Positions 5,051-6,581 of a stretch of DNA of 64,000 nucleotides are shown here, in pieces. This DNA is from Candidatus Eiseniibacteriota bacterium (GTDB lineage Bacteria; Eisenbacteria; RBG-16-71-46; JABDJR01): the NCBI GenBank assembly GCA_963783375.1, contig CAWANH010000029.1:1120001-1184000 (forward strand), written 5' to 3'. Under the pieces are notes generated by a model. It saw only the letters and a list, made by a program, of their open reading frames with translations, did not search any database and was not told where the DNA came from. Position numbers and translations under genes: made by a program. Positions within the stretch are counted from its first letter, which is position 1, and each line of letters opens with the position of its first letter.

Positions 5051-5268
5051 TGGCGGAGAGGGAGGGAGAGTCGTGGCTCTCGCTTCGCTTCGCCACGACA
5101 TCCCCAGCTCGCCCTGCTTCCTCAGGCTCTGGAGGTTTACCACCTGAGTTGCCTCAGAATGGCGGAGAGGGAGGGAGAGTCGTGGCTCTCGCTTCGCTTC
5201 GCCACGACATCCCCAGCTCGCCCTGCTTCCTCAGGCTCTGGAGGTTTACCACCTGAGTTGCCTCAGAA
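5051..5268 (-). repeat. tRNA-linked tandem repeat array: 2 identical 109-bp units, each ending in the last 17 nt of tRNA-Ser(GCT)
   Basis: TGGCGGAGAGGGAGGGA at 5051, 5160 and 5269 (the tRNA itself); the 92-bp intervening sequences are identical. Confidence 0.95.
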
Positions 5269-5359
5269 TGGCGGAGAGGGAGGGATTCGAACCCTCGGTA
5301 CAGTTTCCCGTACAACACCTTAGCAGGGTGCCACCTTCAGCCAGCTCGGTCACCTCTCC
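5269..5359 (-). tRNA. tRNA-Ser(GCT)
   Basis: Acceptor GGAGAGG/CCTCTCC-G-CCA; anticodon arm GCACC-CT-GCT-AA-GGTGT; long variable arm; T-arm GGGTTCGAATCCC. Confidence 0.97.
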
Positions 5360-5398
5360 GCAAGGCGTACAGCTGTGCATCCCGCAATCGGGTCACGG

Positions 5399-5428
5399 AG
5401 GGTACCACAGCCCAGAAGGAGCCCGCAA
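5399..5428 (-). promoter_or_regulatory. Putative sigma-70 promoter of tRNA-Ser(GCT)
   Basis: Minus strand TTGCGG-N18-TACCCT with extended TG, ~40 nt upstream of the tRNA. Confidence 0.4.
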
Positions 5429-5460
5429 TGAAGGTCGGCGTGGGTTCGCCGGGGCCGGGA

Positions 5461-5808
5461 TCAGGCCGGGATCGGCTCGGTCATCTCTCCCGAGGGGTGG
5501 TAGGTGCGATCGAAGATGATCACCTCCCGCTTCTCATCCTCCACCATCATCCGGATCCAGTGCTTGGTGCCTCGGGGAATATTGGCGAGCCGCTCGCTCA
5601 AATCGTCGCTGGCCTCGAACTCGTCCATCGGAATCCATGCCCCCCAGAGCTCCTGGGAGGTGTGTATGTGCGCCGTGGCGCGACACTGCTCCATGAGCGC
5701 CTGCAATCCCGCGAACATGGTCTGGCAATCATCCGATTGGATGCAGGCGGTAAAGTTGGCATCGAACACGCAACCGCTGAACTCGCAGAACTTGTTCTCC
5801 CTGACCAT
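5461..5808 (-). CDS. Small Cys-containing hypothetical protein (~115 aa) between the two tRNA arrays
   Basis: GGGAG upstream of ATG (MVRENKFCEFSGC...); protein-like composition unlike the shadow ORFs. Confidence 0.65.
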   Translation of the reverse strand: MVRENKFCEFSGCVFDANFTACIQSDDCQTMFAGLQALMEQCRATAHIHTSQELWGAWIPMDEFEASDDLSERLANIPRGTKHWIRMMVEDEKREVIIFDRTYHPSGEMTEPIPA

Positions 5809-6082
5809 CCTGCTCTCCCTCCCGTCCGAGTCCCCGTTGACCGCCTTCCACCGGATAGACTTCTCCCCTCTTCGGGAAATGGGATCCCGCGGGGGTACTC
5901 CACTGAGCTCAAGTTTGGGGGCCACCTACCTTATCTGATGGGGATTTTCGTCCTGACCGACAAGCGATTCCAGAACCTTATCTGGATACTAGCTATTCAA
6001 ATTCGGCATCAATATAGGGTGTGGGCTTCCTGTGCCGCCCTGAGGCCCCATGCTGTTCGCCAAGCCGCCCCTGGGAGCCTTC

Positions 6083-6493
6083 CGGCGGAGGGAGTGGGAT
6101 GGTCGTCCTCAAGCGCCCGTCTCACCCGGCCACCTCCGCCCAACGATCGCCTGCGGAGCTTTCTGGCGGAGGGAGTGGGATGGTCGTCCTCCTCGCCGCC
6201 GCTCGTCGTACGACGTCCCCGAGCGCCCGGCTCTCACGACAACCTCCGCCCAACGATCGCCTGCGGAGCTTTCTGGCGGAGGGAGTGGGATGGTCGTCCT
6301 CCTCGCCGCCGCTCGTCGTACGACGTCCCCGAGCGCCCGGCTCTCACGACAACCTCCGCCCAACGATCGCCTGCGGAGCTTTCTGGCGGAGGGAGTGGGA
6401 TGGTCGTCCTCCTCGCCGCCGCTCGTCGTACGACGTCCCCGAGCGCCCGGCTCTCACGACAACCTCCGCCCAACGATCGCCTGCGGAGCTTTC
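6083..6493 (-). repeat. tRNA-linked tandem repeat array: 3 identical 110-bp units plus a degenerate 81-bp distal unit, each ending in the last ~18 nt of tRNA-Ser(TGA)
   Basis: TGGCGGAGGGAGTGGGAT at 6164, 6274, 6384 and 6494 (the tRNA); decayed copy at 6083 with an internal deletion. Confidence 0.95.
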
Positions 6494-6581
6494 TGGCGGA
6501 GGGAGTGGGATTCGAACCCACGGAGCCTTTCGGCTCATCGGTTTTCAAGACCGACGCCTTCGACCGCTCGGCCATCCCTCC
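6494..6581 (-). tRNA. tRNA-Ser(TGA)
   Basis: Acceptor GGAGGGA/TCCCTCC-G-CCA; anticodon arm TCGGT-CT-TGA-AA-ACCGA; variable arm GAGCC-GAAA-GGCTC; T-arm GTGGGTTCGAATCCCAC. Confidence 0.97.

Follow-up and report, generated by a model that had tools for sequence, protein, structure and literature searches.

Tandem repeats behind the serine tRNA genes of Candidatus Eisenbacteria: a short, serine-restricted variant of the tRNA-linked repeats

The window, a stretch of 64,000 nucleotides of a Candidatus Eiseniibacteriota genome, carries two tRNA-Ser genes on the reverse strand, each followed by a tandem array of short units on the same strand. The tRNA-Ser(GCT) gene (5269–5359; called by ARAGORN, 54 bits with Rfam RF00005), whose last 17 nt lie at 5269–5285, hosts array 1, made up of two identical units of 109 bp. 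Unit 1 (5160–5268) is composed of a spacer of ~55 nt, a hairpin module at 5173–5216, and a 17-nt tail copy at 5160–5176; unit 2 (5051–5159) has its module at 5064–5107 and its tail copy at 5051–5067. The stretch at 5031–5050, on the same strand, is probably the decayed start of an additional unit, as suggested by its weak resemblance, seen by eye and unscored, to the beginning of a unit and to the flank that lacks an array in a relative, G002. The tRNA-Ser(TGA) gene (6494–6581; ARAGORN, 63 bits with RF00005; last 18 nt at 6494–6511) hosts array 2, in which three identical units of 110 bp occupy 6384–6493 (module 6397–6442, 18-nt tail copy 6384–6401), 6274–6383 (module 6287–6332), and 6164–6273 (module 6177–6222). 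They are followed by a decayed distal unit of 81 bp (6083–6163), which has a 29-nt deletion across the hairpin and a tail ending in CCG, not CCA. Tandem Repeats Finder reports a period of 109 with 2.2 copies and 100% matches just downstream of the GCT gene and a period of 110 with 3.7 copies and 97% matches just downstream of the TGA gene. In the sense of the tRNA, a unit starts straight after the CCA and closes with the last 17 (GCT) or 18 (TGA) bases of the tRNA. An earlier, sequence-only reading had described these two genes with 2 × 109 bp and 3 × 110 bp plus a decayed unit, and tail copies of 17 and 18 nt that include CCA; ARAGORN and Tandem Repeats Finder bear out the arrays, and the tail copies are as described.

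Between the two loci lies an open reading frame of 154 residues starting from GTG (5461–5925, reverse strand), which has no relation to the arrays. Its position is conserved in relatives, with 90% identity in locus L110; it matches no NCBIfam or Pfam family and bears no sign of a recombinase. On the window loci, Rfam gives only tRNA above threshold; the sX4 and plastid models match below threshold and overlap the tRNA itself, and there is one chance miRNA match. At L038:2711–2876 the sX4 model (RF02223, 102.6 bits) spans a tRNA-Ser gene and its trailer, so the tRNA accounts for its weak matches at serine loci. A further model, RF04351, scores below its cut-off on the antisense strand of tRNA-Ser 3' halves.

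Comparison of the two arrays upheld one family of gene-less units on a common plan, with GTCGT in equal register (5070 and 6183), and modified other parts of the initial description. The unit bodies had been called otherwise unrelated; identity is in fact 61.5% for the hairpin parts of the GCT and TGA units, a value reached by 2 of 500 shuffles, and 57% for the bodies in full (1 of 500), while the likeness of the 5' halves is indistinguishable from chance (105 of 500). On the basis of these identities, the hairpins of both arrays are homologous. CACGACA at 6235–6241, formerly taken as the partner of GTCGT in the TGA units, is not the homologous arm, which is ACGAC at 6210–6214; with this assignment the GTCGT-to-ACGAC distance is nearly equal in the TGA and GCT units. 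The 1-bp difference between the periods, also remarked on, is a single draw from the family range of 102–114 bp (55 units counted, with one 75-bp exception in G004). We also considered a degenerate duplication of the whole tRNA and rejected it, since alignment of the 5' halves to tRNA-Ser, tried in both orientations, scores no higher than that of shuffled sequence.

Each unit comprises a variable spacer of ~55 nt, a hairpin of ~40 nt, and a tail equal to the last 17–19 nt of the host tRNA. A 51–59-nt spacer comes first and is followed by GGGAY, a 5-bp stem, and an inner hairpin; two or three bases then lead to the tail, which closes the stem with its initial TCCC. In an alignment of 28 rows, obtained from 38 distinct units after dropping near-duplicates, 95% of the cells are paired and 7 of the 11 pairs are altered on both sides, counts that are inflated, like the identity counts, by related rows. 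None of 500 shuffles scored as high, slid alignments gave 40–54% pairing, and a module-only alignment of 21 rows agrees with this result. The inner hairpin carries tandem GA/GA mismatches in 18 of the 21 rows, and a cGNAg triloop caps it in about 17 of the 28 aligned units (16 by script and one miscalled). Loops of the cGNAg type are unusually stable in DNA, and such triloop caps fit DNA better than RNA. The covariation could be a sign of selection for function; palindrome-correcting template switches can also produce covariation in a hairpin. Two further features were set aside: a helical phasing of conserved spacer bases, with p values of 0.02–0.11 on related rows, is not claimed, and an acceptor-stem mimic found in the predicted fold of the GCT unit is absent from the consensus.

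The genome to which the window belongs (G000) is 97% complete, and the whole-genome tRNA scan proposed in the sequence-only reading was carried out on it. ARAGORN made 57 calls, and a search of the 1.5 kb downstream of each found a copy of the gene's own end in five cases: the four canonical tRNA-Ser genes and tmRNA, each followed by an array. As assembled, the arrays contain five units (CGA), three (GGA), two (GCT), and three plus the decayed one (TGA), and the tmRNA array has a period of 81 bp with 2.9 copies. None of the 50 other tRNA calls, SeC included, has an array, nor do two further serine calls that lack a canonical end. Over 104 nt, the GCT unit and the one that follows tRNA-Ser(CGA), 38 kb away, share 85.6% identity. 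A search with a model of the hairpin module gave 13 matches at E ≤ 2e-5, all in the serine arrays and obtained with a model trained on these same units; the next best match has an E value of 1.4. The restriction to serine was thus tested genome-wide in G000, and in the relatives over the serine, tmRNA, and few other loci that were read.

A motif search matched 5 of 61 relatives, and a looser one matched 9 of 206 genomes of the phylum, seven of them in the family; among the looser matches, that of G007 is at no tRNA and that of G013 is the tRNA itself. Reading of the loci established real arrays in six of eight family genomes (G000–G004 and G006) and a single decayed unit-like stretch in G005, and the serine genes of two order-level relatives, G008 and G009, have none. 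Array-bearing records with a taxon title are named Candidatus Eisenbacteria, and the host organisms are uncultured. Over 150 phylum genomes the module model gave strong matches in five family genomes only, missing G006, and none of its 23 weak matches elsewhere is located at a tRNA. Copy number at matching loci ranges from 0 to 6 as assembled, the array being wholly absent at GGA in G001, at GCT in G002, and at CGA and GCT in G004. One locus, L036, is titled Deltaproteobacteria; horizontal transfer to it was considered and dismissed, since its neighbours are syntenic with those of G000 and 54–70% identical to them.

Perfect identity of the window units is what an assembly artefact would produce, and the earlier reading had named such an artefact as grounds for refutation. 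The matching loci of five other assemblies (G001–G004 and G006) and of metagenome contigs bear arrays as well, each with its own units, which differ from those of G000, and mosaic and decayed units occur within the arrays. The existence of the arrays is upheld by these different units in independent assemblies, and an artefact is therefore very improbable.

The closest known counterparts are the tRNA-linked repeats (TLRs) of Escherichia coli, and the likeness to the tyrT repeats pointed out in the sequence-only reading is right. PMC8144298 describes TLRs as 22 units at ten tRNA or rRNA loci, with one to five per locus, whose last 18–19 bp repeat exactly the 3' end of the preceding gene. The loci include the 178-bp tyrT/tyrV repeats (RtT, Rfam RF00391), serX, lys, arg, proK, and rrn; the repeats have been known since 1978 (Egan and Landy 1978 and Rudd 1999, as cited there) and are presented as having no known function or origin (PMC8144298). 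The window units lie directly downstream of a tRNA gene, their tails measure 18 nt for TGA and 17 nt, one short, for GCT (17–19 nt in 52 of 55 family units), and the serine loci of G000 carry two to five units each. The TLR units that we extracted from strain K-12, three of them behind serX, have the same plan as the serine units: an upstream GGAT arm pairs with ATCC at the start of the tail, there is a terminal GAG-hairpin-GAG motif with GNA loops, and no gene is present. In this terminal motif, the proK unit and one G001 unit have 19 of 20 nt in common. The serine units differ from RtT in being shorter, with a single rod hairpin, in having neither its GAGAAC...GGTTCGAC part nor its GTTGC/GCAAC hairpin, and in carrying an extra GTCGT/ACGAC stem and no terminator. 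Unlike the E. coli TLRs, they are confined to serine tRNAs, with a separate type behind tmRNA.

RF00391, with a cut-off of 45 bits, has no match on the window units and none in 4500–7200 at E ≤ 1; its best match in G000, among 150 of 530 candidates scored, reaches 18.2 bits and lies away from the units. Conversely, the module model, which contains no E. coli sequence, gave under strict filters (2 candidates) a single match in K-12, the hairpin of the tyrT TLR, at an E value of 1.76. With filters off on six E. coli loci, 13 of 16 weak matches fall within TLRs and cover the terminal hairpin of 12 of 17 TLR units, missing three arg and two lys units; none of the E. coli matches is individually significant genome-wide. 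A Ser-tailed unit at the edge of a viral contig (L184) scores 31.6 bits with RtT and 24.9 bits with the module model. The window units are thus TLRs by the descriptive definition and probably also by descent; they are not members of the Rfam RtT family. We regard the serine arrays as a lineage-specific, serine-restricted short variant of a known, unexplained class of repeats. Searches of the literature outside subscription papers gave no report of such repeats in this lineage and none on the mechanism of TLRs.

Relationships among the units suggest movement between loci within a genome. In a comparison made without L036, body identity is 68% between loci of one genome (52 pairs) and 58.5% at the same locus across genomes (71 pairs), the latter value being equal to that of unrelated pairs and both being raised by related rows. 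For 20 of 27 units the nearest neighbour outside their own array is found in the same genome, and in G006 all seven units from four loci form one branch with 99/98 support, the other genomes being less resolved. Mosaic arrays occur, with the orders A A A' B A (the CGA array of G000) and A A' B A B', and decayed units are distal, which fits unequal exchange. The tails, in contrast to the bodies, follow their hosts: a script, whose count leaves out the 75- and 81-bp units and three units of G001, found 52 of 55 family units identical to the tail of their own host, the other three being damaged, not foreign. None of the 55 units counted bears the tail of another tRNA, all 14 units behind hosts with a rarer tail type match it, and the tail of the 75-bp G004 unit bears a private variant of its host. 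Of the four serine tails, three are identical, and 3 of 17 positions differ in the remaining one.

We therefore propose, with a probability of roughly 0.55, that host recombination and replication slippage make gene-less TLR units grow, shrink, and move among the four serine tRNA genes. A unit would first have been seeded behind one serine tRNA and amplified by slippage and by unequal exchange on identical units. Units could then have passed among the four genes because the serine 3' ends are almost the same, and the restriction to serine would follow from this common end. Any foreign tail would be lost, either through conversion with the adjacent tRNA as donor or because selection keeps the tRNA intact. 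The hairpin may act as single-stranded DNA and may have its origin in the mobile module of TLRs in general; the enzyme that once seeded these need not exist today. Transcription may run from the tRNA into the units, and trimming may yield CCA-ended RNAs as a by-product. Several observations stand against host recombination as the whole explanation. It leaves unexplained the origin of the first unit and the nearly fixed spacer length (51–59 nt), and likewise the separate array type of tmRNA and the lack of arrays at other tRNAs. Homology of the TGA locus to the others is short, yet these loci have hairpin types in common. In K-12, moreover, one TLR body stands behind tRNAs with quite different tails; homology alone is therefore insufficient there, and the TLR class in general probably requires a templated step of some kind.

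The tmRNA-linked arrays inform on the nature of the hairpin. The tmRNA units of five family genomes are built on the plan of the serine units, with their own tail and a complementary arm, and in four of the five the cGAAg hairpin lies on the opposite strand. These arrays form a second type, with units of 45–124 bp and arrays that reach five units or more (G000 C3:189100–189335; L165–L168), and in the tmRNA array of G006 the copies end before the CCA end. By GC skew, the serine and tmRNA genes of G000 are all on the leading strand; a fixed orientation of the module to replication was therefore rejected, as the modules of the two types face opposite ways. The reversed tmRNA hairpin implies that hairpin polarity is independent of transcription, and together with the cGNAg loops it points to a DNA-level feature, a hairpin of single-stranded DNA.

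This evidence bears on another explanation, that the units are selected small-RNA genes, co-transcribed with the tRNA and cut to regulatory, CCA-ended RNAs of ~110 nt, as RtT and RrA/B/F. Several features agree with it: no terminator-like site was found on the tRNA strand across both window arrays; RNA folding of the module is favoured on the tRNA strand (mean z of −3.9 versus −2.9 on the opposite strand), where its G-U pairs occur; and, in E. coli, transcription and processing are reported for the three TLRs of rRNA operons (PMC8144298). Whole units, on the other hand, fold little better than shuffles (z of −1.9 and +0.6), identity of the 5' halves between genomes is only ~53% and they lack a common fold, and the triloop caps are of the DNA type. 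Loss of the array at matching loci, where copy number varies from 0 to 6, and the reversed module of the tmRNA units make an RNA function less likely, and we consider it quite improbable.

An insertion of non-autonomous cassettes at the T-loop or 3' end of tRNA-Ser, by a site-specific recombinase or nuclease that is encoded elsewhere or passes through on mobile DNA and reads the single-stranded hairpin, still competes with host recombination, since a motif resembling the one beside phage att sites stands at the start of some units. In 11 of 38 distinct units, from three genomes, the first bases read CCA-N4-TTR, similar to CAA-N4-TTA, which was noticed by eye in phage contigs next to att fragments of tRNAs. 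The start of the tail within a 3-nt range (17–19 nt), the narrow unit size, the triloops and tandem GA/GA mismatches, and the opposite strand of the tmRNA hairpin in four of five genomes would also suit such cassettes. So would the array of G006, in which a near-identical unit is also found behind a displaced tRNA half-gene 622 bp downstream, and an integron-type integrase encoded in G000, recognised by its sequence motifs (C28:633617–634765). The 622-bp insert of G006 (L064:1942–2563) lies within the Ser(TGA) array, encodes one lipoprotein-like open reading frame without a family, and carries a tRNA copy from the anticodon loop to CCA, like the remnant of an island that has no integrase.

The insertion by a recombinase encoded elsewhere, put forward in the sequence-only reading, found no confirmation in the search for a partner. 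Five tyrosine-recombinase matches are present in G000: a XerC-like and a XerD-like protein, the integron-type integrase, and two copies of another protein. No tyrosine recombinase lies near a serine array in any of the six array-bearing genomes, no integrase gene is located inside or beside the window arrays, and across 13 genomes such enzymes are equally present where arrays are lacking. Over the same 13 genomes, co-occurrence of reverse transcriptase, Y1 transposase, GIY-YIG proteins, and tyrosine recombinases was uninformative or negative: Y1 transposase (PF01797) is absent from all eight family genomes and reverse transcriptase from the four genomes of the genus, and GIY-YIG proteins of ~100 residues occur in array-less genomes only. 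No autonomous partner was found at 29 genome loci (17 of them chance matches without tRNA), 9 metagenome loci, and 22 viral loci. Mobility of the units is likewise without a trace in the collections searched: no family unit was found in IMG/VR, where a first search gave no locus and a second gave 22, one of which is a longer, host-type TLR at a contig edge, nor by BLAST in the PLSDB plasmids and INPHARED phages, and foreign tails are absent. No inverted core of the attC type is visible by eye in the units. For the E. coli mobilome, the raised signal over RNA genes, including the tyrT region, is ascribed to RNA/DNA hybrids, not to circles (10.1101/2024.07.17.603846). A role of the arrays as decoy attB sites, also suggested initially, has no support, as the tail copies lack the T-loop. 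Taken with the motif at the unit starts, these results leave cassette insertion as a real, if minority, possibility.

Islands inserted by tyrosine integrases and the serine arrays both have a 3' gene fragment downstream in the same orientation, and both can occur as tandem arrays. The serine arrays, unlike islands, have no integrase and no cargo and consist of identical tandem copies, with a unit of ~0.11 kb versus the 2-kb lower limit of Islander (PMC4383910). A displaced 3' tRNA fragment downstream in the same orientation, used to recognise genomic islands, is present in the window arrays, which are relevant to annotation because the tail copies mimic island ends. REP/BIME elements, associated with RAYT (HUH Y1) transposases, likewise form tandem arrays of short, imperfect, GC-rich hairpins whose active form is likely single-stranded DNA. 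The serine units differ from them in that the module is found at serine loci only, not dispersed, is bound to a host-matched tail, and has no Y1 enzyme in any of the eight family genomes. A CRISPR array was rejected, the 5' halves being identical in adjoining units and related across loci, and hence not unique spacers. TwoAYGGAY elements (RF01731) resemble the serine arrays in that they too are non-coding and structured, vary strongly in copy number, and await a mechanism for their expansion (10.64898/2026.09.22.753630). Unlike TwoAYGGAY, the window units have no AYGGAY loops and no Rfam match and are fixed to tRNA ends; the longer Ser-tailed unit L038 has an AYGGAY loop.

Our results add three constraints on TLRs: bodies are swapped between paralogous tRNA loci with their tails still host-matched, loops are of the DNA type, and the polarity of the tmRNA units is reversed. 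These constraints favour a DNA-level process over a conserved RNA function. A broader reading, unlikely in our estimation, is that TLRs are widespread, so far unrecognised non-autonomous mobile DNA, for which a trans-acting enzyme would insert a single-stranded GA/GNA hairpin behind stable-RNA genes in either orientation and copy the last 17–19 nt of the target, as Cas1 copies the CRISPR repeat. If this were true, its clearest natural record would be the inverted tmRNA module together with the serine loci, which have three tail types among four genes.

Other repeats lie close to the arrays. A 16-bp palindrome with a ACCCGGGT core is found at 5000–5015 of the window, 36 bp past the GCT array, and has about 24 dispersed copies in G000. 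Its core has 22 extended copies versus 0–4 for six control cores and is part of larger intergenic tandem repeats, clustered for example at C28:1544780–1545790. Similar palindromes lie behind the serine arrays of G001, G002, G003, L110, and L111. Downstream of the Ser(CGA) array of G000 (C29, below 1086693), a 37-bp tandem repeat with a CCCCGGGG core has words in common with this dispersed palindrome family. Finally, an intergenic tandem repeat of ~63 bp between convergent genes (L140:1390–1570, in G122) forms a rod hairpin that resembles the module, with 34 bits, and has neither a tRNA nor a tail.
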